Origin: an uncultured Christensenella sp.
GTDB lineage: Bacteria > Bacillota > Clostridia > Christensenellales > UBA1242
NCBI GenBank assembly: GCA_949300385.1
Contig: CASGDZ010000001.1
Coordinates: 6,152 to 70,151 of the forward strand
Direction: 5' to 3'
Length of the DNA stretch: 64,000 nt
In this document: positions 2,060-45,608 of the stretch, piece by piece
Numbering within the stretch: the first letter of the stretch is position 1
Layout of the letters: every line of letters begins with the position of its first letter
Position numbers and translations under genes: made by a program
Notes under the pieces: generated by a model
The model's input: the letters and a program-made list of their open reading frames with translations, nothing else
The model's database searches: none
What the model was told of the DNA's origin: nothing

Positions 2060-2104
2060 CTCTTAATCAGTGGGTCCGGGGTTCGAGTCCCCGAGGGTCC
2101 ACCA
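2060..2104 (+). mobile_element. tRNA-Lys(CTT) 3' fragment, probable att junction of an integrated element
   Basis: CTCTTAATCAGTGGGTCCGGGGTTCGAGTCCCCGAGGGTCCACCA starts exactly at the anticodon loop and ends in CCA. No tRNA 5' half lies upstream. Confidence 0.8.
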
Positions 2105-2111
2105 CGAAAAC

Positions 2112-2140
2112 AAAAGCACTAGATAAGTCTAGTGTTTTTT
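2112..2140 (+). terminator. Intrinsic terminator after the tRNA fragment
   Basis: GCACTAGA-TAAG-TCTAGTGT hairpin followed by a T run. Confidence 0.7.
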
Positions 2141-2144
2141 ATTA

Positions 2145-2295
2145 GGACCCACTGATTAGGGGTCCCCATAAGTTAATGAAGTAGACTTATGGAGTAAAGG
2201 CAAAAGCAAATGAAAAGGCGAATTTGCATAAAGCAAATCGCGAAGAATGAGACTTTTGTCGCGGGTCCGGGGTTCGAGTCCCTGAAGGTACATCA
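2145..2295 (-). repeat. tRNA-associated element, family B, at tRNA-Lys(CTT)
   Basis: Second tRNA 3' copy at 2263-2295 (29/33 identical). Core has CCTTTACTCC-hairpin-GGGGACCCC on the minus strand. Bases 2145-2158 are an inverted copy of tRNA 2065-2077 region (TAATCAGTGGGTCC). Confidence 0.75.
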
Positions 2296-2329
2296 ACAAA
2301 AAATGAAAAATATTCGTTCTTTTTTATGA

Positions 2330-2884
2330 TTAAAAATTGTTATAAATATTAAAGATTTTTATCTCTGCATTTTTAAAATTTCTTAAATGTTTAGGATTGT
2401 TAAAATCAATATCGACTTTAGATATTATATCGGCAAGAAAACTAGCAATTACATTGTGAGTGACAATTAATACATTTTCATATTTGTTATTTGATATTAT
2501 TTCATTTATAAAATTTTTAGCCCTTTTAAAAGCACTTTCGTACGATTCCATTCCACAACTAGCACTACGCATAGATTTTAAAATTTTTTCTTCTTCGGTC
2601 AAACCTGCTTTTATTTTCCCTGAAAATATACCTTGGTCAATTTCAATTAGTCTATTATCTTTAATAATTTTAACATTATGATATTTATTCATAATATTTG
2701 CTGTCTGCATAGTTCGCATTAGGGGAGAAGAAAAAATAATGTCAAATTTTGTATTTTTGAATATATTAGCAGTTTGTTCTACCATGAATTTTCCTGTTTG
2801 ACTCAATCTATTATTTCTATAGCCTTGTGTTATTCCCTTTTCGTTCCAAATAGTCGTTCCGTGACGCAATATATATATTTTCAT
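2330..2884 (-). CDS. Histidine phosphatase (phosphoglycerate mutase family)
   Basis: RHG motif at the N-terminus, SSPLxR, late VTH. Confidence 0.9.
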   Translation of the reverse strand: MKIYILRHGTTIWNEKGITQGYRNNRLSQTGKFMVEQTANIFKNTKFDIIFSSPLMRTMQTANIMNKYHNVKIIKDNRLIEIDQGIFSGKIKAGLTEEEKILKSMRSASCGMESYESAFKRAKNFINEIISNNKYENVLIVTHNVIASFLADIISKVDIDFNNPKHLRNFKNAEIKIFNIYNNF

Positions 2885-3042
2885 TTTTGCTCCAAAATAA
2901 TAAAAGATTAAATAGTGTTATTTCATTGTATCATAAAATATAAAAATTGTAAATTTTATTGAAATTTTATATGATCAATTATCTAAAATTAATTCATTTT
3001 TAATAATTTTTGTAATATAATTGTTGTAAAGGTGGATTAAAT

Positions 3043-3564
3043 ATGCTTTGGTTTTGTATTGTAGGATTTTTATTTGTATCTATATTTGGAGCGCTTTCGC
3101 ATTTTTTTTATAAGTGGAGTGGGGAGAATTATATCATTGGTATCATTTTCCCTGTAAACGAAAGCACATGGGAGCATTTAAAATTATCAATTTTTCCAAC
3201 GCTTGTATATTTCTTAATAGGTGCAATTTTTTATAAAAATCCAAATTATTTATTTGCATTTTTTATAACATTAATTACACCAATGGTTCTAATACCTTTA
3301 ATATTTTATACAAATACTGTTTTTACTAAAAAATCAATACTTATAGTTGACATATTGTCTTATTTTGTTTCAGTATTGACAGCATTTATATTCTGTTATT
3401 TTATATTGGCACATTCTGCCTTAAATTCTGCATTTAATATAATCGCAGTTGTTGGAATCTTGCTAGTAATGATCGCTTATTTAACCTTTACAATATTTAC
3501 TCCAAAATTAGAGATATTTAAAGACCCAGTTACAAAAACATATGGCATTAAAAAATTAAGTTAA
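3043..3564 (+). CDS. Conserved membrane protein (DUF6512-like)
   Basis: Hydrophobic, with HFFYKW and PVNESTWEHLKL motifs. Confidence 0.7.
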   Translation: MLWFCIVGFLFVSIFGALSHFFYKWSGENYIIGIIFPVNESTWEHLKLSIFPTLVYFLIGAIFYKNPNYLFAFFITLITPMVLIPLIFYTNTVFTKKSILIVDILSYFVSVLTAFIFCYFILAHSALNSAFNIIAVVGILLVMIAYLTFTIFTPKLEIFKDPVTKTYGIKKLS

Positions 3565-3570
3565 AAAATA

Positions 3571-3600
3571 AAAAAGTTAAAACTAATGTTTTAACTTTTT
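3571..3600. terminator. Bidirectional terminator
   Basis: AAAAAGTTAAAAC-TAAT-GTTTTAACTTTTT between convergent genes. Confidence 0.8.
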
Positions 3601-3604
3601 ACTA

Positions 3605-4087
3605 TTATTTACGCTTATTGTCAGTTATATTGTCTACTGCAATTACGAGTGCAATACAAAATGGAATATCTTCTTCATTTGCTTCAAGTTCAAAAGAATC
3701 TCTAATAAATGTAATTTCTCGGCGTATTTTACCTATAATCTTGCCATTTCTAACTATGTTACATGATAGTGAAAATATTTTACCATCCAATTTAATTTCA
3801 TCTTTGTAACCTTCTATAAAATAGTCATTTTTAAAATTAAACCATTTATCTTTAACTGTTGCTATCTTATTATTGTCATTGTCATAGATAAATGCTTTAT
3901 GAACAAACCAATTAAACCATTTATTTCTAATAGTATATAATTTATTGCCTTGCAAATCATAGAGATATTTTTTTCTAGTGATAGAGAAGACTTTACCTTT
4001 TACTTCATAAACTGGATTCTTGTTTTCATCAACAACGGACGAACTTCCACCTAATGAAATTAACTTATTTTTAATATAAACTTTCAT
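3605..4087 (-). CDS. LURP-one/scramblase (tubby C-terminal-like) protein
   Basis: YIKNKLISLGG...YEVKGK...ALVIAVD pattern. Confidence 0.8.
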   Translation of the reverse strand: MKVYIKNKLISLGGSSSVVDENKNPVYEVKGKVFSITRKKYLYDLQGNKLYTIRNKWFNWFVHKAFIYDNDNNKIATVKDKWFNFKNDYFIEGYKDEIKLDGKIFSLSCNIVRNGKIIGKIRREITFIRDSFELEANEEDIPFCIALVIAVDNITDNKRK

Positions 4088-4097
4088 TTATAACTCC

Positions 4098-4604
4098 TTA
4101 AAATGCTTTTCTTAAATAGACGATTAAAGCGATTATGATAGCAATCCATACAACGACTTTAAATAGTGTGTTAATTCTTTTTCGAGTTTTTGCTTGTTTA
4201 TCTACAAAATATTCATTTTCTATCTCTTCAAATTCGTTTTGCGTTTCAATTTCCAATACACGACCTTGTTGTTTTAATGGATTGTACCTTAATTTAATAT
4301 CATTTGTTTCATTTAGTTTAAACTTAAATTGTGCTTTTATTGAAATACATTTTTTATCATACCAAGGTTCAAATATGCCAAAAATACTAATGACAAAACT
4401 AATGAACGAATACAACCACCACAATTTACTCTTTAATTCAAGTTCTCTATAAACGCTGACTACAATTTCGTCCTTTTCAGTTGAGTAATTAGTTTGATAT
4501 GAACCATATGAATTCTTTTTTAATTTTTGATATTGTCCATCGACAGATAGGAGAGGTTTAATTTTTGAATTTGCACCAACTAATTTTATTTTAACAGTTT
4601 TCAT
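4098..4604 (-). CDS. Hypothetical membrane protein
   Basis: 168 aa ORF with two hydrophobic segments, in an operon with its neighbours. Confidence 0.7.
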   Translation of the reverse strand: MKTVKIKLVGANSKIKPLLSVDGQYQKLKKNSYGSYQTNYSTEKDEIVVSVYRELELKSKLWWLYSFISFVISIFGIFEPWYDKKCISIKAQFKFKLNETNDIKLRYNPLKQQGRVLEIETQNEFEEIENEYFVDKQAKTRKRINTLFKVVVWIAIIIALIVYLRKAF

Positions 4605-5041
4605 TAAATCACCCCCAAAGCGATTATAATCGCAACTATTATTGCAAGGACGACAACTATAGAGGATATGACAATTCTAGCGACTGGGCGTTCGCGTCTA
4701 TCAACTAAAAGCAATATTAACGAAATGATAGACAATATGATAGTCAAAGTTATAAATAATGAAGCATGCTCCAAAAAGAAACTAGAAATCTCTGCCGATA
4801 TTCGCGAAGCCGATGTTAATTTATCCCAATAATTTGGTACAAGAACAAAGATTGTACCAATTGTAACTAAAATTAAGGTTAATCCTATCAATAATATAAT
4901 CGCGGTAGAAATAAAAGAAACAACCCCCACAAAGCATAACACTAAACAAATAATGGACATGTTCGAAAATATTTTTCCCATTCTAATACAAAAAGATAAG
5001 AAGTCGTATTTAAATGTAGAAGGAATGTTTGAATTATCCAT
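4604..5041 (-). CDS. Hypothetical multi-pass membrane protein
   Basis: About 4 hydrophobic segments. Start moved to ATG 5041, which follows GGAGG. Confidence 0.7.
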   Translation of the reverse strand: MDNSNIPSTFKYDFLSFCIRMGKIFSNMSIICLVLCFVGVVSFISTAIILLIGLTLILVTIGTIFVLVPNYWDKLTSASRISAEISSFFLEHASLFITLTIILSIISLILLLVDRRERPVARIVISSIVVVLAIIVAIIIALGVI

Positions 5042-5217
5042 AAGCCCTCCTATAAAATAATTTATTAATTTTATGATAGCATATAAAATATTATGTGTCA
5101 AATAATTTAATATATTAAAATGATATAATCTTTTCTATTTTTTAATACATTTAATCGTATTCGCATTACATATAAAATCATGCTTATAAAATTTATATTA
5201 TCGACATAAAATACAAT

Positions 5218-6270
5218 ATGAAAAAAATTGTATTTACAGGTGGCGGAACTTTAGGGCATGTAATGCCAAATTTGTATTTGATTGAAGACCTTTCAAAAAA
5301 ATATGAAATTAATTACATAGGTTCAAATGGTCTTGAAAAAAACATGGTCGGGAATAAAAATATTAATTTTTATGAAATACCGACTGTTAAACTTGTTAGA
5401 GGTAAAATATTAAAAAATCTTAAAATTCCTTTTGTTTTAATTAAATCAATTTATAAAGCAAAAAAATTATTAAAAGAAATCAAGCCAGATATCATTTTTA
5501 GTAAGGGCGGGTATGTTTCGCTCCCTGTTTGTATTGCAGGACGAATGTTAAATATCCCTATTATTGCGCATGAGAGTGATTATTCATTTGGACTTAGTAA
5601 CAAAATTATTTTAAAATTATGCAATAAAATGTGTGTTAATTTTGAGCATTTAACAAATAAAGATAAAAAGATTATTTATACGGGTCCAATTTTTAGTCGC
5701 GAATATGAAATGACTGAAAAAGCAAAAAAACTTAAATTAGACAAAAATAAACAAACCCTTTTAATTGTTGGCGGGTCATTAGGTTCAAAAAAAATTAATG
5801 AATTGATTTATTCCATTTTGAACGATTTGTTAAAAAATTTTAATGTCATTCATATTACAGGAAAAGGAAATAAAAAATACGATTCTTTCGATAATTACAA
5901 TGCCTTTGAATCTTTTAATAATATGGTTGAATTATATAATTCGTGTGATATAGTAATTGGAAGAAGTGGAGCAGGTGTTACAAGTGAGAGTTTTTACAAG
6001 AAAAAGCCAATGTTACTTATTCCACTTGAAAATAGTGCTACGCGTGGCGACCAACTATTGAACGCAAAATTCTACGAAAATTTAGGTGTGGCAGAAATAT
6101 TGCGTGAACCTGACTTGAATGCAAATAAATTATTGACGACTATAAAAAATATAAGTAAAAATTTAGTAAAATATAAAGATAATTATTCACATATAAAATT
6201 AGTTAATGGTCGTCAAACAATTTTAAAGTTAATAGATGAAATGTTATCAAATAATTCATTGATTAAATAA
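5218..6270 (+). CDS. murG: UDP-GlcNAc:lipid I N-acetylglucosaminyltransferase
   Basis: GGGTLGHVMP, KGGYVSLP, GGSLGS and RSGA motifs. Confidence 0.95.
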   Translation: MKKIVFTGGGTLGHVMPNLYLIEDLSKKYEINYIGSNGLEKNMVGNKNINFYEIPTVKLVRGKILKNLKIPFVLIKSIYKAKKLLKEIKPDIIFSKGGYVSLPVCIAGRMLNIPIIAHESDYSFGLSNKIILKLCNKMCVNFEHLTNKDKKIIYTGPIFSREYEMTEKAKKLKLDKNKQTLLIVGGSLGSKKINELIYSILNDLLKNFNVIHITGKGNKKYDSFDNYNAFESFNNMVELYNSCDIVIGRSGAGVTSESFYKKKPMLLIPLENSATRGDQLLNAKFYENLGVAEILREPDLNANKLLTTIKNISKNLVKYKDNYSHIKLVNGRQTILKLIDEMLSNNSLIK

Positions 6271-6417
6271 TACTAAACGATTAATAGATTAGTTATTAAC
6301 ATAAAAAATAATTTTATTATAAATTAATAAATTTTAATTTTGATTCGTTAACAAATTAGAACCCTGATAAATAAAAAATGATAACCAGATTTAGATTATC
6401 ATTTTATTATGTTTATG

Positions 6418-7156
6418 TTAATCGTCATTAAGGGTGTTTTCGTTCGTTTTTTCTTCGTTTTCTAAATTAGTTCCCGTTATTACGACCTTTTTATTTTCTT
6501 TAATCATTCGTGCTATTAAAGGTAGAGCATCGCCTAAACGCTCAACATTGCTTTCTTCTTGCTCATCGTCAATTAAGGTTATATTTACTTGTGGTTCTTT
6601 TTTGTTGTTTCTTTTTAATGCAGCTCGATAATCCATTTCCGCCATTTTGATTTTGTAGGAAGAATCACTAACTGTTTCAATTAAATCTTCTTTAAATTTT
6701 TCAGTTTCAAATTCTTTTTTCTTTATATTGAAGTCATTTGAATTTTCGAAAACCTTTAAATAAGCTTTGACATCTTCTATTTTTCCTTTCTTTTTTATAA
6801 GTTTATAAAGGTATTTATTAATTTTTTCTTCTGGAGATTTTTTTAAAAATAAAAGTCCCGCACCGATACAACATACAGGAACTATTAATAAAAACAATCC
6901 CCACAAAGTTTTCAAACTTATAGCAATGGTCATTAAAAGACTGAGAAGTGAAGTCCACATAATTGATAAGAAATCATAAAAAAAAATTTGATTTTAATCG
7001 TTCATGTACATTAATAACATTTTTTAATTTATCATAATTTTGATAAGTTAAATTTTTTAATGTTGAATCGAGATGATATTTGATAATGTCTTCAATTTTA
7101 TTGTACTCTCTATATTCTTCTGCACTAAAACTATTGATATTTTTATCTATGTTCAT
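6418..7156 (-). pseudogene. Hypothetical membrane protein split by a +1 frameshift
   Basis: ORFs 6974-7156 and 6418-6960 join in frame if one base is removed from the A9 run at 6978-6986. Confidence 0.6.
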
Positions 7157-7362
7157 AAAATACTCCTAAAAAGTTAATTAGGAGAATTATAACATAAATT
7201 TACAATTTGTCGATATTAAATTTAAATTTATTTAGTAGATTAGGTTTGTTTTGTACGACTAAATTATATTATTTAACTAATTGATTAAATTTTTTTCTAA
7301 TTATATAGTTGCTTAATATTTACGTCAATAACAAAATATGTTGATTAGATTAGCCCTTTTAA

Positions 7363-8247
7363 CTAATTTGAAGCGATATTTTGGATTAATTTTTCTGCAA
7401 TCACAAATATTTGTTTGCTTTCAGAAGTGGAGCAGGTTTTTAATTTCTTTTTTGTAGGTTGTCCACATATGTTAAAGATTTTTGGGCCTATCCATTCGTG
7501 ATAATCGCACGAACTATAAATTCCTTTTAATACATTCAATGTCGCTTTTTCTACATTTGGGAAAAGTAGTTTTATTCCAATTTTCACTAACCAATTTATT
7601 GCTTTCGGATAATGATTTGTCATATTTGTCAGTGTGACGCCAGGGTGGACGATAGACAATTTAACTTTTTTTTCTCGTTTAAATAACTCATATAAACTAA
7701 ACATCAAGAAGCGCTTTGAATTTCCATAAATTTTGCTTGATTTTTTTTCATTAGAGAAATCAATATCATTTTTGTTTATCTTCGAATAATTGTGAGCAAT
7801 ACTACCGAGTGCAATAACATGTCCGTTTGTTTGTTGTAAATTTTTAAACAAATTTTTTACCATGATATATTGCGATAAAAAATTAATTTGAAATATATTG
7901 TTGTATCCCAATTCTGTTTTGTATATAGGTACATTGTATACACCGGCGTTTAAGATAAGTATGTCAATAGAAAAACTTTTTAATTTTTCAATTGCATTAT
8001 TTAAAGACGATATATTTGATAAATCACATTCAATTATATGGATTTTGATTTTTTCATTATTATTTTTTAAATCATGTGCTTGTTTTTCAGCCTTATTCAT
8101 ATCTCGATCAATCAAAATAAGGTTTGCGTTTAATTTTGCGAGATATCTGCATACACAATTTCCAATACCGCCTGTTGACCCAGTTATTGCAATTGTTTTA
8201 TTAGATAAATCGCTACAATTATCATCTATCCACTTATTTATATTCAT
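7363..8247 (-). CDS. Short-chain dehydrogenase/reductase
   Basis: TGSTGGIG, LNAG, YGNSK (YxxxK) and HPG motifs. Confidence 0.92.
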   Translation of the reverse strand: MNINKWIDDNCSDLSNKTIAITGSTGGIGNCVCRYLAKLNANLILIDRDMNKAEKQAHDLKNNNEKIKIHIIECDLSNISSLNNAIEKLKSFSIDILILNAGVYNVPIYKTELGYNNIFQINFLSQYIMVKNLFKNLQQTNGHVIALGSIAHNYSKINKNDIDFSNEKKSSKIYGNSKRFLMFSLYELFKREKKVKLSIVHPGVTLTNMTNHYPKAINWLVKIGIKLLFPNVEKATLNVLKGIYSSCDYHEWIGPKIFNICGQPTKKKLKTCSTSESKQIFVIAEKLIQNIASN

Positions 8248-8307
8248 GCTTCAATTATAATACAAAAACATGAAGAAATAAAGCGAACTATTAGGATAAA
8301 TAAAAAA

Positions 8308-8435
8308 TGGTGCGTCAAGAGGGGTGAGCGCGTAAAGAAAACAGTTAATAACTGTTTTTAGCTAGCGAACGGGAGCAATCTATGATTGCGGTCCGCCCGA
8401 CAAGGGTCGAACCCGAAAGAGGGGGTTCGAATCCC
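8308..8435 (+). repeat. tRNA-associated element, family A, at tRNA-Arg
   Basis: 16-bp copy of the tRNA end (8308-8323), 72-bp core shared with 10122-10193, and 8421-8435 equal to the exact reverse complement of 8469-8483. Confidence 0.85.
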
Positions 8436-8455
8436 AAATCTATATAATAAAAAAA

Positions 8456-8532
8456 TGGTGCGTCAAGAGGGATTCGAACCCCCGACCCCCGCCTTAGAAG
8501 GGCGATGCTCTATCCAACTGAGCTATTGACGC
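8456..8532 (-). tRNA. tRNA-Arg(TCT)
   Basis: Cloverleaf, anticodon loop CTTCTAA, GTTCGAA T-loop, CCA end. Confidence 0.95.
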
Positions 8533-8748
8533 ATACCAAATACACAATATTTTACCATTATAAAATATCTTTGTCAATAATTTCGTGTAAAATTTACAAA
8601 TTTTTATATTTTATTGTAAGTTTATATGTTTAATTTATATAAAATTCAATTATTGTGTTTTCATTTAAATATGGATTTTAAAAATCTGATATTGACAATT
8701 TGAATGTTAATGTTATAATATTAACAAAATTTAAAAATAGGAGAGAAT

Positions 8749-9618
8749 ATGGAAGAATTTAAGAAAAATGACAAATATGATGAGGCAATTTTAAAAAGTA
8801 ATGATCGATTCAAATATTTTGTTAAAGAAGTTGAAAATATGAATTTAAGTACTATTTTAAATTTTCAAATTCCTTTAGAAATATCAAAACAATTAAATGA
8901 ACAAAATATTCAAATTGTAAATTGGTTTAAATTATTTGAAAGTTTTGATATTTGTTCAGTAAGTGATTTATCAGAAAAAATGGATCGAGTTTTTGTAAAA
9001 TTCGTTTTTGATAAGAATACAAATCAATGCAAAGCATTAAAATTATTATCAAAAGATAAACTTAATGAAATAGTAATAGAAGGAGAAGAATTAACGGATT
9101 TAATAAATGTATTGAACTTAAATGGAGTAGATGTTAATGTACCATATCGCCGATATACTATAAATGATTATATTCGATTAGATATGTTTGATAAAAACTT
9201 TCAAACAAATTCACATGAAGAAATTTTAAAAAATTTACAAAAAATGAGTTGCCAATTATTCAAACAAGATAGCTTTACCTTATTTTATATTAAGCAAATG
9301 ATTAAAGAAAAGATCATGCCACTAATAGAAGAATTGAAATCTATACAAAAAGCATGTGACATTAGTGAGAAGCAAAGAGAAATTAATAAATTAATTTCAT
9401 GTTATAAAGAAATTTTAGAAACTAAACAATACGAGTATAAGTTATATCAAAGAGCGCAAGATCTTAAAAATGGAGGATATGGCGCATATGTAAAATATTT
9501 AACTAGTATGTTGGATAAATTCCACCACAATAGAATTGATGATACAATTGTTAACAAAAATGAAATTAAGGCAAAAAATTGCGAACAATTAATGAACGAT
9601 TTTAATAATAATTTATAG
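8749..9618 (+). CDS. Hypothetical protein
   Basis: 289 aa ORF with AGGAG RBS and a TTGACA-17-TATAAT promoter upstream; no recognisable motif. Confidence 0.75.
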   Translation: MEEFKKNDKYDEAILKSNDRFKYFVKEVENMNLSTILNFQIPLEISKQLNEQNIQIVNWFKLFESFDICSVSDLSEKMDRVFVKFVFDKNTNQCKALKLLSKDKLNEIVIEGEELTDLINVLNLNGVDVNVPYRRYTINDYIRLDMFDKNFQTNSHEEILKNLQKMSCQLFKQDSFTLFYIKQMIKEKIMPLIEELKSIQKACDISEKQREINKLISCYKEILETKQYEYKLYQRAQDLKNGGYGAYVKYLTSMLDKFHHNRIDDTIVNKNEIKAKNCEQLMNDFNNNL

Positions 9619-9764
9619 AATTTAGGTAAGATAACACAAAAATACAAGGAATTATCTTAAAACTTTAATATTTTTTAGTAGATTGCTATAAATTCAAAAA
9701 ATTAATAAAAACAATATATTGACATAAAACAAAAAATCCGCTTTTAAATCGGCGGATTTTTATA

Positions 9765-9838
9765 TGGAGCGGGTGAAGAGAATCGAACCCTCGTAACTAG
9801 CTTGGAAGGCTAGCGCTCTACCATTGAGCTACACCCGC
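9765..9838 (-). tRNA. tRNA-Gly(TCC)
   Basis: Cloverleaf, loop CTTCCAA, CCA end; terminator hairpin at about 9732-9761. Confidence 0.95.
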
Positions 9839-10078
9839 ACGATGAATACAAGTATATTATCATATTTTTTTCGTAGTTGTCAAGATAATTTATTATGTTT
9901 TTCAAAAATATTTAAGTCTTAATAATAATTTTATTTAAAATTTTTTAAAAATTTTGTAAAATTCACTTGTTTTTTTCATTTCTATGTTGTATAATACAAA
10001 AGTCGCAAACATAAAAGAGTTGTTCACTCATATAAAATCATTTATTCAAACACAAAAATTTAATATACCAAATAATAT

Positions 10079-10226
10079 GGTTCATTAGCTTTAGGTGAGA
10101 GCACATGACTTTTAATCATGGGTGAGCGCGTAAAGAAAACAATTGATAATTGTTTTTAGCGAGCGAACGGGAGCAATCTATGATTGCGGTCCGGTTCCGA
10201 CAGGAGATCCCGGTTCCCTGGGACAC
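10079..10226 (+). repeat. tRNA-associated element, family A, at tRNA-Lys(TTT)
   Basis: Copy of the tRNA 5' half through the anticodon arm (10079-10121, D-loop altered), shared core 10122-10193, and 10217-10226 matching the reverse complement of GTGTCCCGGG at 9/10. Confidence 0.85.
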
Positions 10227-10253
10227 AAATATCTTAATATATCAAACTAATAT

Positions 10254-10329
10254 GGTTCATTAGCTCAGTTGGTAGAGCACATGACTTTTAATCATGGTGT
10301 CCCGGGTTCAAGTCCCGGATGAGCCACCA
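10254..10329 (+). tRNA. tRNA-Lys(TTT)
   Basis: Cloverleaf, loop CTTTTAA, CCA end. Confidence 0.95.
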
Positions 10330-10362
10330 TTTTATTTTAAGTGGCATTTAATAATGTCATAT

Positions 10363-10526
10363 GCGGATGTGGCGAAATTGGCAGACGCGCGCGTCATAAT
10401 GCGCTTTTTAGTCAATTTGCTAAGCGCAAATATAGACCTTTCGGCGATTATTCCTTTCCCCATTAGACTTTTGTCTAACGTGGACCCCGAAAGTCTAGCG
10501 CTAATATAGTCCATAGTATAATGACG
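10363..10526 (+). repeat. tRNA-associated element, family B, at tRNA-Leu(TAG)
   Basis: 28-bp exact copy of the tRNA 5' end (10363-10390), core with TCCTTTCCCC-hairpin-GTGGACCCC, and 10491-10501 equal to the reverse complement of tRNA 10574-10584. Confidence 0.85.
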
Positions 10527-10549
10527 ATAAACTTATATACAACAAAAAT

Positions 10550-10632
10550 GCGGATGTGGCGAAATTGGCAGACGCGCTAGACTTAGGATCTAGTGGGTGA
10601 CCGTGGGGGTTCAAGTCCCTTCATCCGCACCA
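10550..10632 (+). tRNA. tRNA-Leu(TAG)
   Basis: Cloverleaf with variable arm, loop CTTAGGA, CCA end. Confidence 0.95.
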
Positions 10633-10751
10633 TACAAGAATAAAACGAACCTTGAGAACTCAAAGTTTGTTTTTTAATATAATTAAATTCGACATATTTT
10701 TGTATTTTAGTTGCATCTATTTCAAGTATATTATATTATATTATTATTTAC

Positions 10752-11319: not shown

Positions 11320-11427
11320 ATAATATTTAAGATTTTTAAGTTTTTTGATTTTATTTGTTAAAAATAATTGACTTTTTTGTTTTTTATGCTAATATTATCT
11401 AGTACACTTTTAAAAATTGTACTTTAT

Positions 11428-11502
11428 TGGGGTATCGCCAAGCGGTAAGGCACAAGACTTTGACTCTTGCATGCGGTAGTTCGAATCTACCTACCCCAGC
11501 CA
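11428..11502 (+). tRNA. tRNA-Gln(TTG)
   Basis: Cloverleaf, loop CTTTGAC, CCA end. Confidence 0.95.
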
Positions 11503-11583
11503 TATAACATATTCGTAAACTAGTTAGGTTTTGATTATTCTAATGGTTTAGAGTGTGCTATTTATTCTTATCAAGATTCGTAT

Positions 11584-33842: not shown

Positions 33843-33923
33843 TCAAAATAATTAAAATGTCAAAGTGCGATTAAATCCAATCAGCCCTTTGACTTTTTCA
33901 ATAATAGAAATATAATAAGAGTA

Positions 33924-35950: not shown

Positions 35951-35972
35951 AAATATATTAAAAGGAAGAAAA

Positions 35973-37662: not shown

Positions 37663-37668
37663 GTCAAA

Positions 37669-38301
37669 ATGGTAGAGAGCATTAAAACATTTTGGAAATC
37701 TAATGAACTAAAACAAAATACGCATTTACTGATATTTGAAAATGGCTGTATTGTGATTGACGCAGGGTGTCCAATAAGTGAGATAAAAAGTGTATGCGAT
37801 AAGCCGATAGTGGCATGTTTCATAACACACGGACATTATGACCATATAAAGCATATTGAAGAGTATGACAAATTAAATATTCCGATATATGCAAATAAAA
37901 ATATAGTCTGTTTGTTAGAATCTCCATGGCTTAATACAAGTGAGATTTTCGCTAAACCTACGAAATATAATGTTAACAATTTATATTTTGTTGATGACGG
38001 CGATGAGATTGATGTATTAGGCAAGACGATTAAATGTTACTATACACCGGGACATTCATTTGATAGCATGTGCTACTTATGTGATGGCAATTTGTTCTCT
38101 GGCGACACACTATTCTCAGTCGCAATTGGTAGAGTTGATTTACCAACAGCGAATGTAGAGCAGATGATGACTAGTCTAAGCAAATTAAACAATATAAAAT
38201 ATTCGACGATGTATACGGGACATTGGCGAACAAGCACAAAACAAGAGCAAAATTCAAATATAGCATACTATAAAAACATATTACAAAAAGAATTAAATTA
38301 A
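37669..38301 (+). CDS. Metallo-beta-lactamase fold hydrolase (glyoxalase II-like)
   Basis: THGHYDH, TPGH and SGDTLF motifs. Confidence 0.9.
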   Translation: MVESIKTFWKSNELKQNTHLLIFENGCIVIDAGCPISEIKSVCDKPIVACFITHGHYDHIKHIEEYDKLNIPIYANKNIVCLLESPWLNTSEIFAKPTKYNVNNLYFVDDGDEIDVLGKTIKCYYTPGHSFDSMCYLCDGNLFSGDTLFSVAIGRVDLPTANVEQMMTSLSKLNNIKYSTMYTGHWRTSTKQEQNSNIAYYKNILQKELN

Positions 38302-38320
38302 ATAAAAAGGAGTAAAAATT

Positions 38321-40138
38321 ATGTCAAAAATTATTGGTATTGATTTAGGTACAACTAATAGTTGTGTAGCTGTTATGGAAGGTGGTCAACCTACTGTTAT
38401 CCCTAATAGCGAAGGTGGAAGAACTACACCTAGTGTAGTTGGATTTAAAGATGGAGAACGCTTGATAGGTCAAGTGGCTAAGCGTCAAGCAGTCGCTAAC
38501 CCAGAAAAGACTGTTATATCAATTAAGCGTGAAATGGGTACTCACTATAAGGTTAATATTGATAGTAAATCATATAGCCCAGAAGAGATCAGTGCTATGA
38601 TTTTATCAAAATTAAAACAAGACGCGGAAGCATATCTTGGTCAAAAGGTAACACAAGCAGTTATCACTGTCCCTGCATACTTTAACGATTCACAGCGTCA
38701 AGCAACTAAGAATGCAGGTAAAATTGCAGGACTTGAGGTTCTTCGTATAATCAACGAACCAACAGCAGCAGCACTTGCATACGGACTTGATAAACAAGAT
38801 AGAAAAAATCAAAAGATTCTAGTATACGATTTGGGTGGCGGCACATTCGATGTATCAATTCTTGAAATAGGTGACGGTGTATTTGAAGTATTGTCTACTA
38901 ATGGTAATACTCGTCTAGGTGGCGATGACTTTGATAATCGTATTATGGACCTTTTAATTTCAGAGTTTAAGAAAGAAACAGGTATTGATTTATCAAATGA
39001 TAGATTAGCAAAACAGCGTTTAAAAGAAGCAAGTGAGAAGGCAAAAATCGAATTAAGCACATTATCTCAAACAACAATTAGTTTGCCATTCATCACAGCA
39101 GACGCAACTGGTCCTAAACACCTTGAATATACTTTAACTCGTGCGAAATTTGAGAACATGATTGCCGATCTTGTAGAGCAAACACTTGTATGTACTCGTA
39201 ATGCATTAAAGGACGCAGGACTTAGCAAGAATGATATTTCAAATGTAGTATTGGTTGGTGGTTCAACTCGTGTACCATGTGTTGTAGATGCGCTTTCTAA
39301 AGAAATCCCTGTTACACCATTTAAAGGTATCAACCCTGACGAATGCGTTGCAATCGGTGCTGCAATTCAAGCAGGAGTATTAGGCGGAGAAGTTAAAGAT
39401 GTATTGCTTCTTGATGTAACTCCATTGTCATTAGGTATTGAAACTTTGGGTGGAGTATGCACAAAACTTATTCCAAGAAATACTACAATCCCTACTAAGA
39501 AATCTCAAATATTTAGTACTGCACAAGACAATCAACCAGGTGTTGAAATCAATGTATTACAAGGTGAGCGTGAGTTTGCCGCACAAAATAAATCACTCGG
39601 TAGATTCCAACTAACAGGTATTCCACCAGCTCCAAGAGGTGTTCCACAAATTGAAGTTACATTTGATATAGACGCAAATGGTATCGTAAATGTTAGCGCT
39701 AAAGACTTAGGCACAAATAAAGAGCAAAAAATCACTATTACTGCTAGCACAAATCTAAGTGAAGATGAAATCAATAAAGCAGTTAAAGAAGCAGAGCAAT
39801 TTGCAGAAGAAGATAAGAAGAAGCGTGAAGTAATCGACGCTAGAAATAACCTTGATGGTATGACAATGAATATCGAAAAGGTTATGAAAGAGAATGGCGA
39901 CAAGTTAAGCGAAGAAGATAAAAAAGCGCTTACTGACGCTGTTGAAGAGGCTAAAAAGCATATCGCTAGCGAAAGCATGGATGAGATAAAGAAAGCAACA
40001 GACGATTTAACAAAAGTTTCTAACGAAGTGTTTACTAAGATGTATCAAAACATGTCTAGCCAAGCACAAACTAATGGTCAAAATCCTACAGGCGACAAGC
40101 CAAAAGATGACGGCGATCCAGAAGTTGTAGTTGAATAA
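38321..40138 (+). CDS. dnaK: Chaperone DnaK
   Basis: GIDLGTTNS and [10 protein letters not shown] motifs. Confidence 0.98.
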
Positions 40139-40146
40139 AGGTAATT

Positions 40147-41271
40147 ATGGCAAATAACGATTATTATGCAACCTTAGGGGTGAGCAAGTCGGCGACTGAT
40201 GACGAGATTAAATCGGCATATAGAAGCCTTGCAAAAAAATATCATCCCGACCTTAATAAAACCCCTGAGGCGGCAGAAAAATTTAAAGAAATAAATGAAG
40301 CCTACTCTGTCTTAGGAGATAAGCAAAAGCGTGCTAACTATGATCAATATGGGAGTGCGGACGGCCCACAAAGTTTTGGCGGAGGTGGCCAAGGTTTTTC
40401 AGGCGGTTTTTCTAGCGATGGCTTTGGCGGATTTGAGGATATATTCAATATATTTTCAAATTTTGGCTCACGCTCAAATGCTCGAGCAAGGGAAGAAGGC
40501 GACGATGTAAATATCAACCTTGTAATATCTTTTACTGAGGCGGCTTTTGGTTGTGAAAAGGAAGTTACTGTCACACGAAAGGAGCGTTGTCCAGATTGCA
40601 ATGGCACTGGTGCAAAATCTAGTAGCGATTATGTAACATGTACTGAGTGTAATGGAACTGGTAGAATGACCTACACTCAACAGACTTTGTTTGGTATGAC
40701 GCGAACGGTTGGCACATGTAGAACATGTGGCGGTAAAGGTAAAATCGTTAAAAATAAATGTCCTAATTGCCATGGCACAGGACTTAAGACAACTACTAGC
40801 AAAATCAAGGTAAAGATCCCTGCAGGTATTGACAACGAACAAGTCATTCGCCTAAATGGAGAGGGTAACCAAACCGCTTCACCAGATGGAATCGCGGGAG
40901 ATTTGAGAATCGCAATAACTGTAACACCGCATTCATTGTTAGTCAGAAAAGGATTTGATCTATATGTAGATGTGTATGTCCCTATAACTACATTAATGCT
41001 AGGTGGCAAAGTTAAAGTTCCTACGTTAAAAGGTACTACTACGATCGATGTCGCACCACTTACACAATCTAATACAAAATACACTTTGAAAGGCAAAGGC
41101 GTAAAATACCTTAAATCAATTGGAAGTGGCAATTTGATCGTTACTTTAAAGGGTGAAATGCCTAAAGATATAGATAAAAACACAATAAAATTAATTAAAG
41201 AGTTAGAAAGTTCTATTAGTGAAAAATCTTATCCAAAAACTATTAATTATAACAATAAATTAGACAAATAA
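40147..41271 (+). CDS. dnaJ: Chaperone DnaJ
   Basis: HPD, G/F region, four CxxCxGxG repeats. Confidence 0.97.
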
Positions 41272-41297
41272 AATGGCAGATATTTCTGCCATTTTTT
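41271..41297 (+). terminator. Terminator of the dnaK operon
   Basis: AAATGGCAGA-TATT-TCTGCCATTTTTT. Confidence 0.8.
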
Positions 41298-41603
41298 GTA
41301 TAAAGTAATATCTATACATATAAAAACAAAAAATAGTTTTAAATATGGTAAACTAAATAAAACATTGGCATATGAAAGATAAGATAGCAACGGCTACTTA
41401 AATTTTAAAAGAATGATTTATTATTTACTATTTTCCTATATAATAGACACTCTTTTTAAACAATAATTTTATTAACGGAGATAATATCTTAGGCATTTTA
41501 AAACAATATATTTTCATATTACATTATACTATTATTTAATAAATTTTGTTATTATGCTTACAATTACATTTATAAATTAAATAATTTAGCACAAAAAAAG
41601 AGA

Positions 41604-41789
41604 CTATTTAGTCTCTTTTTTCATAGTTTTTAAACATTTAGCGCAAATATTTTTCTTACCTTTCTTTCCGTCTAATTCAACATTAACTTTTTGTATATTA
41701 GGATCGAAAGTAGTTTTAGTATGGCGCATGCTGTGACTAACATTGTTTCCTGATGTGCGACCTTTACCGCAAATTTCACAAACTTTCAT
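41604..41789 (-). CDS. rpmB: 50S ribosomal protein L28
   Basis: CEICGK...GNNVSHS...PNIQ...CAKCLK. Confidence 0.95.
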   Translation of the reverse strand: MKVCEICGKGRTSGNNVSHSMRHTKTTFDPNIQKVNVELDGKKGKKNICAKCLKTMKKETK

Positions 41790-42068
41790 GATTTTACCTC
41801 CGTTAAAATTTCAATTGCTTGTAAATAATATCATAAATTTAAAGAAAATGCAAGTATTTTATTAAAATTTACTAAATCATATATTAAACTAAGACAAATA
41901 ACATACAATACCAATATCGAACCTTTGTCTAAGTAAAATATTTTCATATAAAATAAAAGTTTGTCATTTTTTATATTTTAAACGCTAAATATGAGAAATT
42001 TTAGCAAACTATCAAAAAAACATTTGCTAAAATATAATTTATGTTATATAATAACATAGGAGAGTGAA

Positions 42069-42416
42069 ATGAACTTAACCACTTTTAACTCATTTGGGAA
42101 GATAAGCATCAGCAAGCGCGCTATCAGCAAGGTCGCTGCTGTTTCTGTTATGGAGTGTGTGGGGGTTGTTGGTTTGGTATCACAACGCAGTTTTTTTAAA
42201 GGCAATGCACTAACCACAGCACATAAAGGGGTCGTTGTCACTAACCTAGAAAATGATAGTATGAAGATAGATGTCTATGTGATAATGCGTCACTGCGGTG
42301 TTTCAGCGTCTGCTGTTGCCGAATCTATCAGACAAAGCGTGAAATATTCAGTTGAGCGCTTTGCTGGAATGATAGTTAAAGATGTGACTGTACATATCGT
42401 AGACGTGAAGATATAG
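42069..42416 (+). CDS. Asp23/Gls24 family protein (YloU-like)
   Basis: Sequence pattern and conserved position between rpmB and the DAK2 gene. Confidence 0.88.
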   Translation: MNLTTFNSFGKISISKRAISKVAAVSVMECVGVVGLVSQRSFFKGNALTTAHKGVVVTNLENDSMKIDVYVIMRHCGVSASAVAESIRQSVKYSVERFAGMIVKDVTVHIVDVKI

Positions 42417-42430
42417 GAGTTTAATTTAAT

Positions 42431-44065
42431 ATGATAAAAACAATTAACGGATCTGCGTTGAGGAAGATGTTTTCTAACGCGTTCTCATTGGTTGAAGAGA
42501 ATAAAAAGACTATTGATGCACTAAATGTTTTTCCTGTGCCGGATGGAGATACTGGTACAAATATGAGCCTAACCTTAAAAAGTGCGACTAGCGAAATGAA
42601 TGCTTGTGAGAGCAATACAATTGAATCTATTTGTATAGCATTTAATCGTGGAGCATTGAAGGGTGCAAGAGGCAATAGCGGGGTTATTACATCTCAAATC
42701 ATTAAAGGTATTTGTACTTGTTTAATGAATTGTCAAACAGAGATAACTATCAAAGATTTTGCTAAGGCTATTCAGAATGGTGCTGAGATGGCATATAAAG
42801 CCGTTACTGTGCCGAAAGAAGGAACAATACTTACTGTTATCAAAGCTATGGCGGACAAGTCTAAACAAGCAGCGAAATCTGCCAAGACCTTTGAAGATTT
42901 TTTGAATGAAATCATTACTCATGGCGAAGCGACTTTACAAATGACACCTGATATGTTGCCAGTTTTGAAGAAAGCAGGAGTTGTTGACGCTGGTGGTCGT
43001 GGTCTTATCTTCATTTTTAGCGGTTTTTATAAGGCTTTAACTGGTGAAATGACCGAGGTTGCTTTTATCGATAATGTAGAGAAAGATATCACGAGCGAGG
43101 ATTTACATGTAAATTATGAATCGCTTGCAGATATAAAATATGCATATTGTACAGAATTCTTTGTAATAAACATTTACGAAAAGACGACTGACGCGGATAT
43201 TAACACCTTGCGCTCAAGACTTATGGAGATAGGTGATTGTGTGCTTTGTATAGGTGATTTGCAATTAATTAAGGTGCATGTACATACTAATGAACCAAAT
43301 CGTGCGCTTGGCTATGCATTGCAATTAGGCGAACTTAATGGCGTTAAAATTGAAAATATGTTAGAGCAAAATCGTCAATTAAGGAAACAAAAAGAGAAAG
43401 AACCTGAAAAAGAATTCGGAATGATAGCAGTTGCAGCGGGAGATGGTCTTAGCAGTGTCTTTAAAGATATTGATGTAGATTATATTATAAGCGGTGGTCA
43501 AACAATGAATCCAAGCGCTAATGATATAGCCACTGCTGCTGATAAAGTTAATGCAAAGAATATATTTGTATTCCCAAATAACAAAAATATTGTTATGTCT
43601 GCTGAGCAAGCTAATGATATAACGGATAAAAATTTAATCGTTATTCCTACTAGAAGCGTACCAGAGGGTATAAGCGCTGTATTAGCATTCGATTCTACAG
43701 CCTCTCTTGATGAAAATAAACAAAACATGATGGATATGATTTGTAATGTAAAGTCAGGTTCAGTTACTTATGCTGTAAGGACAACAAATGTAGACGGAAT
43801 TGATGTTAAAGTCGGCGACATTATGGGACTAGATGAACATTCAGTTTTGACAACAGGCAAAGAAGTTTGTGATACTACAATTGAGTTGATAGAAAAATTA
43901 ATTTCAAATGATAGTAGCAATATTACACTTTTCTATGGCGAAGGAGTCACAGAGGAAGATAGTGCTAAACTTCAATCAAAACTTGAAGAGCGTTTCCCTG
44001 ATATTGATATTTCGATGGTATATGGAGGTCAACCTGTATACTATTATATAGTTTCAGTTGAGTAA
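42431..44065 (+). CDS. fakA: DAK2-domain fatty acid kinase subunit A (YloV)
   Basis: LNVFPVPDGDTGTNM, GARGNSGVI and GGQTMNPS motifs. Confidence 0.92.
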   Translation: MIKTINGSALRKMFSNAFSLVEENKKTIDALNVFPVPDGDTGTNMSLTLKSATSEMNACESNTIESICIAFNRGALKGARGNSGVITSQIIKGICTCLMNCQTEITIKDFAKAIQNGAEMAYKAVTVPKEGTILTVIKAMADKSKQAAKSAKTFEDFLNEIITHGEATLQMTPDMLPVLKKAGVVDAGGRGLIFIFSGFYKALTGEMTEVAFIDNVEKDITSEDLHVNYESLADIKYAYCTEFFVINIYEKTTDADINTLRSRLMEIGDCVLCIGDLQLIKVHVHTNEPNRALGYALQLGELNGVKIENMLEQNRQLRKQKEKEPEKEFGMIAVAAGDGLSSVFKDIDVDYIISGGQTMNPSANDIATAADKVNAKNIFVFPNNKNIVMSAEQANDITDKNLIVIPTRSVPEGISAVLAFDSTASLDENKQNMMDMICNVKSGSVTYAVRTTNVDGIDVKVGDIMGLDEHSVLTTGKEVCDTTIELIEKLISNDSSNITLFYGEGVTEEDSAKLQSKLEERFPDIDISMVYGGQPVYYYIVSVE

Positions 44066-44080
44066 TCGTATTATTATAAA

Positions 44081-44113
44081 AATAAAGCACACTATAAAAG
44101 TGTGCTTTATTTT
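44081..44113 (+). terminator. Intrinsic terminator
   Basis: AATAAAGCACAC-loop-GTGTGCTTTATTTT. Confidence 0.8.
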
Positions 44114-44254
44114 GTGTGTTATGTATTTGTAATACGCTATATGTTGATATTAATAATATAATTTAATAACATAAAAATTGTTTATATCATGAATTAAAAT
44201 GAAAAAATTTCACATAATAATTGTGTAGTTATAATCTACATAAAAGGAGATATT

Positions 44255-44506
44255 ATGTTTGGAAGAAAGAACAAAGCATCTAGCGTAAGTACAAAAAACT
44301 GCTCTAACTCATATGATTCTCAGTCTATGACAAACGAGTCAACTAAATCATGTGGAGGTAAATGTACTTCAAACTCAACTAGTACAAAGGCATGCAATTC
44401 TACAAAAAATTGTGGCTCTAAAAATGAGAGTGCAAAGTCTGCGTCTGTTAAGTCTAGTTCAGCAAAAGGATGCGGAGCGTGTGCGAACACTAAGTCATCT
44501 AAATAA
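44255..44506 (+). CDS. Small Ser/Lys/Cys-rich protein
   Basis: AAGGAG RBS, its own terminator at about 44517-44548, repeated STKxC motif. Confidence 0.7.
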   Translation: MFGRKNKASSVSTKNCSNSYDSQSMTNESTKSCGGKCTSNSTSTKACNSTKNCGSKNESAKSASVKSSSAKGCGACANTKSSK

Positions 44507-44973
44507 AATAATCCGTATAAAAAATCTCAGATAAACTGAGATTTTTTATGTAATCAATTAAATAAAACTTTATTAATGTAAAATTAAGAATTTTTATATA
44601 AAATATAATGCTTTTAAAATTTATATTTATAATATTATTCTTGCCAACTTGAAAGATAAATAGAGTAAACATATAAAAATTTTTTATTTTATAACTAAAA
44701 ATATAAATAAAAATTAATAGATAATAAGACAATAATATATACTAATAAAATTCATTATAGAGATTTAACAGAATTAAAAAGATACAATAGACTTCGAGAT
44801 ATAATTGTTATTATAAGATAAAATGCTTACAACAATTAATATGTTAGTCAATATAAATATTAAAATGTTTTATAAAAATTGTACACAAATTGTACACAAT
44901 AAAAAAAATGACCCAAAATAACTATACAAAATATAGTGTTTAAGTCATTTGTTTACTACAAAATGTAGTATTA

Positions 44974-45048
44974 TGGAGCGGAAGACGAGATTCGAACTCG
45001 CGACATTTGCCTTGGCAAGGCAACGCTCTACCACTGAGCCACTCCCGC
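44974..45048 (-). tRNA. tRNA-Gly(GCC)
   Basis: Cloverleaf, loop TTGCCAA, CCA end. Confidence 0.95.
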
Positions 45049-45116
45049 AAATTTTAATGAATAATATAATATATTCATTTTTTCATTATCCTGTTATAAA
45101 GCAAAATGCAATCTAG

Positions 45117-45192
45117 TGGTGGGAGATATAGGACTCGAACCTATGACCCTCTGCTTGTAAGGCAGGTACTCTACCAACTGCGCTAATCTCCC
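45117..45192 (-). tRNA. tRNA-Val(TAC)
   Basis: Cloverleaf, loop CTTACAA, CCA end. Confidence 0.95.
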
Positions 45193-45332
45193 ATACGCGA
45201 TTGCACTATAAATATATCATATTATGAAAATTATGTCAACAATTTTTTTATAGATTTTAAAAAATATTTTTAATGTTTAAAAATGCGAATGAATGATGAT
45301 AAGAAAAAATGAACAAAAATTTGTTCATTCTC

Positions 45333-45420
45333 TGGTGCCGGTGGTCGGGGTCGAACCGACACGTCCTTTTACGGACCCAGGATTTTAAGTCCTGTGCGTC
45401 TGCCATTTCGCCACACCGGC
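45333..45420 (-). tRNA. tRNA-Leu(TAA)
   Basis: Cloverleaf with long variable arm, loop CTTAAAA, CCA end. Confidence 0.95.
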
Positions 45421-45452
45421 AAATTAAGATAGTTAAAATTTATACAATATAA

Positions 45453-45608
45453 GTCGTAGTGCTAAAGGCGCACAGGACGGGGACCCCGCAAATATTTATA
45501 TTTGAAGGGGAAGAGGAGTAATCTTACTATAAATATTATTGCGAGTGTGGCGAGCAATATATAAAGATTGCTGATTACGACGAGCGTCTGCCATTTCGCC
45601 ACACCGGC
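45453..45608 (-). repeat. tRNA-associated element, family B, at tRNA-Leu(TAA)
   Basis: 25-bp exact copy of the tRNA 5' end (45584-45608), core TCCTCTTCCCC-hairpin-GGGGTCCCC, then GTCCTGTGCG (45469-45478), the reverse complement of tRNA CGCACAGGAC. Confidence 0.85.

Follow-up and report, generated by a model that had tools for sequence, protein, structure and literature searches.

Structured non-coding cassettes at tRNA and other gene ends in small-genome gut Clostridia, candidate miniature integrative elements

The DNA analyzed here is a 64,000-nucleotide (nt) stretch of an uncultured Christensenella sp. (the window, C1:6152-70151 on contig C1 of an 838,645-bp genome with 31% G+C and eight contigs, 90% complete), and at five of its transfer RNA (tRNA) loci a structured non-coding core lies between segments that match the adjacent gene. 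Read in the orientation of the core, the general order is D - core - 1 to 5 nt - rc(d+Y) - 0 to 60 nt - D' - Y, as also seen at the ten non-tRNA loci of relatives that we inspected. Here D'-Y is contiguous target sequence, D is a displaced copy of the gene end D', and rc(d+Y) is the reverse complement of the target across the insertion point, with d the short overlap at the junction. The whole unit spans 150 to 300 nt and is non-coding, with a core of ∼80 to 120 nt, an rc(d+Y) segment of 7 to 16 nt and an AT-rich spacer that often holds a terminator. We tentatively interpret these units, with confidence a little short of even, as two families of miniature, protein-free integrative cassettes at gene ends, borne by small-genome gut Clostridia with streamlined genomes of ∼0.8 to 1.1 Mb.

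A first-pass annotation of this sequence had described five tRNA loci with the order X - core - rc(Y) - spacer - X-Y, in which X corresponds to our D, and all five hold on direct pairwise comparison. The architecture at these loci is real and far beyond chance. ARAGORN called ten tRNA genes in the window, and the simplest cases are two tRNA-Leu genes with family B cores. At the fourth locus, on the plus strand, D repeats positions 1 to 28 of tRNA-Leu(TAG) (10363 to 10390; 28/28 identical) and is followed by the core (10391 to 10490), rc(d+Y) (10491 to 10501; 11/11) and the intact gene (10550 to 10632; ARAGORN). The fifth locus has the same arrangement on the minus strand, where D, a copy of tRNA-Leu(TAA) positions 1 to 25 (45584 to 45608; 25/25), starts 5 nt after tRNA-Cys and precedes the core (45479 to 45583; 108 bits), rc(d+Y) (45469 to 45478; 10/10) and the intact gene (45333 to 45420; ARAGORN). 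Two further loci carry family A cores, in which a target-matched hairpin follows the core. At the second locus, the 3' end of tRNA-Arg(TCT) with its T-run appears in reverse complement on the plus strand as D (8302 to 8323; 22 nt, 100% identical to D'; X, 16/16), followed on the same strand by the core (8324 to 8404; 100 bits) and the hairpin (8405 to 8435), whose 3' strand at 8421 to 8435 is rc(d+Y) (15/15), and by the intact tRNA-Arg(TCT) on the minus strand (8456 to 8532; ARAGORN). The third locus lies entirely on the plus strand, and its D comprises ∼30 nt of upstream flank and positions 1 to 44 of tRNA-Lys(TTT) with a decayed D-loop (10049 to 10121; the left edge is approximate and was placed by eye). 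Of this, the 43-nt X is exact over 12 and 24 nt and differs in the D-loop alone; the core (10122 to 10204; 107 bits), the hairpin (10205 to 10226, with rc(d+Y) at 10217 to 10226, 9/10) and the intact gene (10254 to 10329; ARAGORN) follow.

The first locus departs from this pattern in its target. The sequence on its intact side (D'-Y; 2060 to 2105, plus strand) runs from the anticodon loop to the CCA end and is the 3' half of tRNA-Lys(CTT), not a complete gene, and ARAGORN called no tRNA there. The match of rc(d+Y) (2145 to 2158, minus strand) stands as first described and is a 14/14 reverse complement of 2064 to 2077. The family B core occupies 2159 to 2262 on the minus strand (89 bits), and the displaced copy of the tRNA-Lys(CTT) 3' end (2263 to 2295, plus strand) is 29/33 identical to 2072 to 2104, a register one base to the left of that first given for X.

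Contigs of an independent public DNA run, possibly the source sample of the window, bridge two of the junctions without differences, one joining D to the core at the third locus (9900 to 10191) and the other joining tRNA-Lys to the D of tRNA-Leu (10280 to 10388).

We compared all 35 tRNAs of the genome with the 450 nt on either side of each, scoring exact matches of at least 10 nt. Inverted matches occurred at 6 of the 35, every one directly 3' of a core, and the other 29 had none. Three more loci, all beyond the window, came to light in this way (Leu-CAG, Leu-CAA and Met-CAT), and a B core lies upstream at all four single-locus tRNA-Leu genes of the genome. In relatives we examined 112 B copies from 24 genomes of the genus, of which 59 have a detectable duplication, 11 to 110 nt long (one value of 159 nt is a tandem run-through). 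An inverted match of at least 9 nt lies exactly at the junction in 30 of these 59, against 0/59 for a control shifted by 45 nt; over all B copies such a match is found downstream in 50/112 and upstream in 9/112. The overlap at the junction, put at 1 to 6 nt in the first-pass annotation, does exist at every junction, with a range of 0 to 8 nt.

Both cores are structured non-coding repeats whose structure is backed by compensatory changes. A covariance model of family B, built from the six copies of this genome, found the family in 24/24 genomes of the genus searched, with 2 to 35 matches per genome. A search of 16 genomes from the other families of the order returned three weak matches only (E values of 2e-4 to 2e-3). 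In 34 copies from relatives, 93.6% of cells are paired and 9/10 pairs covary, and 0/500 shuffles reach the observed score. Family A has two copies in this genome and was found by BLAST in 24/60 other genomes of the genus. Its model of 18 copies has 23 pairs, of which 10 covary, with 98.1% of cells paired and again 0/500 shuffles reaching the score. Three of the G.U pairs hardly vary (conserved in 18, 17 and 18 of 18 sequences), which assigns the fold to the core-sense strand. A covariance search detected A-like cores in 20/151 genomes of the order Christensenellales, representing 17/96 genera. The earlier proposal of two core families common to several loci, with flanks that follow the local target, is borne out. 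Neither core matches a curated covariance model: no Rfam family was found for either at the gathering threshold in the whole window, or up to an E value of 5 in positions 1900 to 10700, and the Rfam matches in the window are tRNA, RNase P and chance-level ones only. One of the weak matches, a permuted transfer-messenger RNA (tmRNA) at the first locus (E value of 0.9), was discarded because it stems from the two T-arm copies there; an ordinary tmRNA is present in the genome.

The ends of the cores are not inverted repeats (GCGTC... and ...GGGGWCCCC in one form, GYGAG... and ...CCGACAGG in the other). The A core contains an A-tract, a hairpin and a T-tract that together resemble a two-way terminator. 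Every B core contains CTCCTYTTCCCC (for example at 10455 to 10466), which resembles the 3' tail of 16S rRNA, and the other strand of this motif has a strong Shine-Dalgarno-like GGAG.

The cassettes are less specific for tRNA genes than first thought. Of the 25 best B loci from relatives, just 8 have a tRNA within 200 nt. Other targets of family B include the 3' end of 5S rRNA with its terminator (L033), the 3' ends of protein genes (L036 and L028) and, in L016, L019, L024 and this genome at C1:227209, the last 13 codons of ppdK, which encodes pyruvate phosphate dikinase. tRNAs are nonetheless strongly favored by family B, as in genome G005, where 10 of 19 B matches fall within 250 nt of one of 39 tRNAs. 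Family A is almost always found at a tRNA, where its D ends in GG, and the hairpin after its core has as its 3' strand the exact rc(d+Y) and as its 5' strand an approximate sense copy of Y. The same architecture occurs in other families of the order, at tRNA-Ala and another tRNA cut in the D-loop (L276 and L279) and at tRNA-Ser, tRNA-Gly and tRNA-Arg. Nine A-like loci of other genera have no neighboring gene in common.

Several B loci depart from a single simple insert. Tandem arrays with 96 to 100% identical D copies occur at L024, L084, L103 and L171, and truncated copies are also found. Cores cluster by target across species (Met, Leu-CAG, ppdK), as would be expected for target-specific lineages. 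A second short repeat, ...TTCGACT..CGCTCAGRATGACA, flanks many B cores without duplication in relatives (L017, L082, L108, L129 and L134), and in G022 a B core lies within a larger inverted-repeat unit. In the genome of the window itself, a weaker B core (33 bits) at G000:C2:13660-13768 stands head-to-head with the Leu-CAG cassette, with a decayed tRNA-Leu copy between them that is common to both. Another match, at C2:62137-62256 (26.5 bits), was not counted as a B copy because by eye it overlaps a T-box-leader-like sequence on the other strand.

The segment first called X does duplicate the end of the target, as had been proposed, and it is not confined to tRNA sequence. In this genome it takes in the terminator of tRNA-Met(CAT), 16 nt of upstream flank at tRNA-Leu(CAA) and ∼30 nt at tRNA-Lys(TTT). 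Because D is 11 to 110 nt long and often extends into flanking sequence, we regard it as a target duplication and not as a guide. This bears on the possibility of a non-autonomous IS110-like element, in which X and rc(Y) would be the target guides of a bridge RNA. The geometry fits, with one arm matching the top strand to the left of the junction and the other the bottom strand to its right, the two overlapping. We nevertheless consider this explanation very improbable, as the genome has no DEDD_Tnp_IS110 match, the cores have no Rfam match, X is continuous with the native flank for up to ∼110 nt and no short guide sits in an internal loop, and D' can be foreign while D is native.

The first-pass annotation had noted that breakpoints differ and that the core may be sense or antisense to the gene depending on the locus. 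The position of the junction is indeed not fixed: junctions vary in sequence, fall at tRNA positions 19 to 72 and can be found at the 5' or the 3' end of the gene, and no conserved att core was found. These features weigh against the idea that the units are enzyme-less remnants of the kind known as cis-mobilizable elements (CIMEs), moved in trans by a site-specific recombinase with the overlap d as its crossover region. That idea would account for the direct repeats of the gene end around the insert and the restored gene, for a junction that is exact even where D and D' differ and for the 0- to 8-nt overlap at every junction, and the genome does contain one tyrosine recombinase. This lone enzyme lies near the switch in GC skew, as an Xer-type recombinase would (a putative family assignment), no integrase is near any copy, insertion points vary, and protein genes are used in addition to both ends of tRNA genes. 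We judge a CIME-like origin improbable.

Filled and empty alleles could be compared in close relatives at ppdK and at tRNA-Met. For ppdK we used 32 species (30 from one inspection plus L016 and L019), with a tree that covers 30. The cassette is carried by 14 of the 32, counting one remnant, and is lacking in 18, and the filled state requires at least six changes on the tree. G046 (filled) and G005 (empty) are ∼2% apart in ppdK. The one end copy that G005 has looks as if it had arisen by recombination between the two D copies of G046, and both genomes retain an older remnant made up of a D copy and the first nine bases of a core. Among the ppdK flanks of 80 named genomes, mostly outside the genus, B cores were found at only 4 loci.

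At tRNA-Met, where the tRNA was found in 8 of 17 loci fetched, the site is empty in G055, G019 and G005. In the filled alleles of G053, a relative of G055, and of G046, the sister of G005, it is the distal copy that the native terminator and flank follow, and another terminator stands behind the proximal one. The empty tRNA-Met of G005 has a T-stem of the ACAGG/CCTGT type. The functional tRNA-Met of G046 has GTTGG/CCAAC, as in G053, G055 and the genome of the window, and its displaced distal copy and terminator are of the G005 type. For this one locus it follows that the gene itself contains the insert, that the copy continuous with the gene body arrived with the cassette and that the cassette crossed a species boundary recently. 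The displaced native end D is left behind on the far side of the core and decays.

We searched for mobility enzymes of the IS110, Y1 HUH, resolvase, TnpB, rve, tyrosine recombinase and RVT_1 families, and no known mobility enzyme among these accompanies the cassettes. In the genome of the window, 90% complete, there is no match to DEDD_Tnp_IS110 (PF01548), none to the Y1 HUH/RAYT family (REP-associated tyrosine transposases; PF01797), no serine recombinase or resolvase and no TnpB above cut-off. A single rve integrase lies on contig C4 and not beside any copy, and the only tyrosine recombinase (PF00589), at C1:142 kb near a switch in the sign of the GC skew, is far from every copy; no integrase stands beside any copy in this genome or at the nine A-like loci of other genera. 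The non-autonomous character suggested at first is supported. An IS200/IS605-type single-strand transposon or TnpB guide RNA was rejected, as no TnpA or TnpB was found above cut-off and there is no bias toward the lagging-strand template: the orientation of copies relative to replication is 12 to 7 in G005 and 4 to 5 in this genome (one copy ambiguous).

That no transposase or recombinase adjoins the copies had been stated in the first-pass annotation and needs a qualification: a reverse transcriptase lies ∼1.2 kb from the first locus. It belongs to a diversity-generating retroelement (DGR; 1 to 1779 of the window, minus strand; C1:4676-7930 in the genome) with a 339-amino-acid reverse transcriptase (IGNQTSQ motif), a weakly bAvd-like protein of 189 amino acids and a DUF6273 target protein. 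Its template repeat (C1:7194-7301; window 1043 to 1150) and variable repeat (C1:5544-5651) show 19 differences, all 19 at template adenines. As a mobilizer of the cassettes, in the manner of SINE-like repeats moved by a retroelement, this enzyme was rejected because its distribution does not follow the elements: RVT_1 occurs in only 11/61 genomes of the genus, compared with 24/24 searched for family B, and was not found in G005, G007 and G024, which hold 19 to 31 B matches each.

A reverse transcriptase would be central to a retro-insertion route, in which a fragment of the target RNA or a strong-stop complementary DNA (cDNA) primes copying of a core RNA, the cDNA jumps back to the target RNA and is extended until it runs off the end, and the product is integrated beside the gene. 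The outer edges of D are in part what such a route would leave. Of 20 B loci with the junction inside a called tRNA, 9 have the edge at most 3 nt from the mature end, among them 7/11 downstream-type loci with the edge at the CCA end; another 10 have it more than 3 nt beyond the tRNA and 1 has it within. For family A the edge is within 3 nt of the tRNA end in 4/15, in the flank in 9/15 and inside in 2/15. Several longer D copies stop at the last base of the terminator T-run (tRNA-Met(CAT) of this genome, 5S rRNA at L033, and L014, L069, L071, L064 and L301). These edges at RNA ends are a hint that the target transcript may have served as a template. The targets, moreover, are abundant RNAs (tRNA, 5S rRNA, ppdK), the fold of the core is strand specific, and the DGR-type enzyme is close to the first locus. 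Transfer between species would, however, also put the edge of D at the end of a conserved gene, where homology stops, and so explains the edges at mature tRNA ends equally well. At ppdK, D stops short of the terminator; one orientation needs a target RNA and the other a target cDNA; and the scarcity of RVT_1, including its absence from the three B-rich genomes, speaks against the route as a whole, which we regard as unlikely.

A different possibility is that the units are not mobile but are functional RNA or DNA elements kept by the host, such as a terminator or processing module whose pairing with the gene is under selection, and several observations that weigh against an integrative cassette belong here. 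A cores are 92 to 94% identical between species whose ppdK genes are ∼81% identical (93% and 81% for G007), and such conservation above that of ppdK could mean a host function and not a selfish element. At ppdK, rc(d+Y) tracks species-specific synonymous Arg-Leu codons (CGTTTA, AGGCTC, AGATTA, AGACTC and CGCTTA) in 12 of the 14 filled alleles, the exceptions being L019 and the remnant L167, and this tracking needs repeated re-formation of the cassette, correction of the inverted repeat by template switching, or selection for pairing. The covariation and the near-invariant G.U pairs are in keeping with a host element, the A core is terminator-like where tRNA-Arg(TCT) has no hairpin of its own, and A-like cores are present, with small word shares, in contigs of three RNA libraries (metatranscriptomes) of relatives. 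Such contigs carry no information on strand, end or level and do not prove transcription. Further, with the core sense or antisense to the gene, no single RNA would pair alike at all loci, and at many downstream-type loci a terminator stands between the gene and rc(d+Y). Presence also differs between species ∼2% apart, copy number varies from 2 to 35 per genome, and tandem arrays and truncated copies occur. On balance we think a host-kept element unlikely, slightly more so than retro-insertion. One RNA-library contig of a relative (run X11, record 9) holds a complete tRNA-Lys, then tRNA-Lys positions 21 to 44, an A core and tRNA-Lys positions 50 to 76, then tRNA-Leu, an order that would place an A core within a second copy of the tRNA and leave tRNA sequence on either side of it.

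Other points also tell against the integrative reading. About half of the 112 B copies from relatives lack the signature (53 have no D and 62 no inverted match of at least 9 nt), and many of these sit amid other repeat modules. Homologous recombination alone accounts neither for an exact junction between differing D and D' copies nor for the way in which a new target is first captured. Neither excised circles nor new insertions were observed. A foreign origin of D' was shown at a single locus, tRNA-Met, in two species pairs.

We still favor protein-free integrative cassettes, for which the parts may be read as follows. In core orientation a cassette would consist of a strand-specific structured core, the reverse complement of the target across the insertion point, an AT-rich spacer and a replacement gene end D'. 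It would sit inside the 5' or 3' end of a gene whose body runs on into the D' of the cassette, leaving the gene intact. The direct repeats and the restored gene support the earlier suggestion that duplication of the gene end keeps the gene whole, in the manner of integrative elements. In the life cycle that we propose, homologous recombination between D and D' would excise the cassette, amplify it in tandem, delete it precisely and transfer it between related genomes. The D repeats do recombine, and tandem arrays and precise loss follow from direct repeats of this kind.

How a cassette first arises is the least certain part. With low confidence, we suggest that a core may be captured when a break in a heavily used gene is repaired or replicated; the new strand might then turn back on the target, writing rc(d+Y), and restart further out, writing D', for which the target's own transcript may serve as template. 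The inverted copy ends 0 to 8 nt past the junction and D' restarts further out, as expected if a strand leaves its template, copies the core, copies the opposite strand back and restarts upstream. The inverted junction copy accordingly points to fold-back or template-switch synthesis, which was among the readings offered in the first-pass annotation and is still the best account of this feature; for the decoy or protective role also offered there, we found no evidence. None of the strand-by-strand models that we tried (group II-like reverse splicing, opening of a hairpin, tRNA-primed cDNA, RNA-templated break repair, and Xer acting on a single-stranded hairpin) accounts for both orientations without an extra assumption, and we advance none of them as established.

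Several further features of the genome were noted. The GC skew changes sign near C1:10 kb (window ∼4,000) and near C1:140 kb, which suggests a replication origin near the first tRNA cluster of the window and a terminus beside the single tyrosine recombinase; transcription of the Leu-TAA, Leu-CAG, Leu-CAA and Arg-TCT tRNA genes opposes the inferred direction of replication. Several tRNA genes are closely preceded by the motif ATCTTAATAT, which is found in spacers and native flanks alike (window 10227 to 10253 and the spacers at Leu-CAG, Leu-CAA and Leu-TAA) and may be a promoter or processing signal. The tRNA-Lys(CTT) of the first locus is split: its 3' half lies beside the retroelement, and the matching 5' half is on contig C4 (L004, G000:C4:900-1700), just upstream of a complete tRNA-Lys(CTT) and near the rve-type integrase (C4:453-749), which points to the anticodon loop as the site of an old integration or rearrangement. 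At L005 (G000:C4:82800-83658), three tandem copies of the last ∼25 nt of tRNA-Ala(TGC) follow that tRNA. Beyond them a sequence like tRNA-Ile(GAT) occurs twice, first as a partial 5' copy and then as a copy without a proper acceptor 3' strand.

If the integrative reading is true, mobile DNA without an enzyme of its own overwrites the ends of essential genes, including the arms of tRNAs, with foreign alleles, which would be a new route for the exchange of gene ends between species. Annotation and assembly can be misled by the partial tRNA duplicates that would arise in this way, and the copy of the junction in inverted form would be a natural record of template switching. The conserved A core, present across the order, may represent a novel structured nucleic acid that has its own function. 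We further propose, as a doubtful but not negligible extension, that the cassettes are an undescribed class of protein-free mobile element, in which a folded nucleic acid is captured at a break in a heavily used gene, host replication and repair enzymes alone write the gene end and the inverted tag, perhaps with the transcript of that gene as template, and recombination spreads the product and so exchanges gene ends across species. A literature search, judged from its result listings, gave nothing describing the cassette architecture. The inverted junction copy on the 3' side and the apparent lack of a dedicated enzyme are the unexplained heart of the system.

Bacterial genomes harbor several kinds of repeats that resemble miniature inverted-repeat transposable elements (MITEs) or repetitive extragenic palindromes (REPs), among them REP/BIME (bacterial interspersed mosaic elements), Correia, RUP and BOX repeats and the Rickettsia palindromic elements. 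Like these, the cassettes are small, structured, non-coding, multicopy, lineage restricted and sometimes mosaic with other modules, but their termini are not inverted repeats, their target duplication has no short, constant length (11 to 110 nt), their flanks are target derived, and no RAYT/HUH enzyme or matching insertion sequence of the kind associated with REPs and REPINs (paired REP units) was found for them. The bridge (seek) RNAs of IS110/IS1111 elements have two target-matched arms, and the cassettes likewise have two such arms, on opposite strands and meeting at a short overlap; they differ in having no IS110 enzyme, in one arm being long and continuous with the flank, and in the position of rc(d+Y) outside the conserved core.

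Known processes include templated insertions, the fold-back or template-switch correction of quasi-palindromes and the capture of cDNA at broken chromosomes, and the short inverted copy beside a duplication junction, with overlaps of microhomology size, is similar to their products. What sets the cassettes apart is that the same discrete core is inserted each time and that the unit is heritable and spreads. In CTX-phi and other integrative mobile elements exploiting Xer (IMEX), a single-stranded hairpin mimics the Xer target site. The 3' hairpin of family A also rebuilds the duplex of the target junction, and both systems are protein free and form tandem arrays, whereas the target of the cassettes is not dif and varies by locus and, by our reasoning, their hairpin is not at the junction between cassette and chromosome.

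The closest parallel is with integrative elements and genomic islands, which insert in tRNA genes and carry the tRNA end in attP, and with CIMEs, their enzyme-less remnants. The cassettes are much smaller (150 to 300 nt), non-coding and without an integrase nearby, carry the junction a further time in inverted form, and occupy either end of a gene, protein and 5S rRNA genes included, with a repeat of 11 to 110 nt and no fixed att core. They do not fit the definitions of integrase-borne islands, MITEs, REP/RAYT systems, IS110 or IS200/IS605, but they work like target-restoring integrative elements, in that a gene end borne by the insert restores the target, the native end is left behind as a direct repeat, and tRNA genes are favored.

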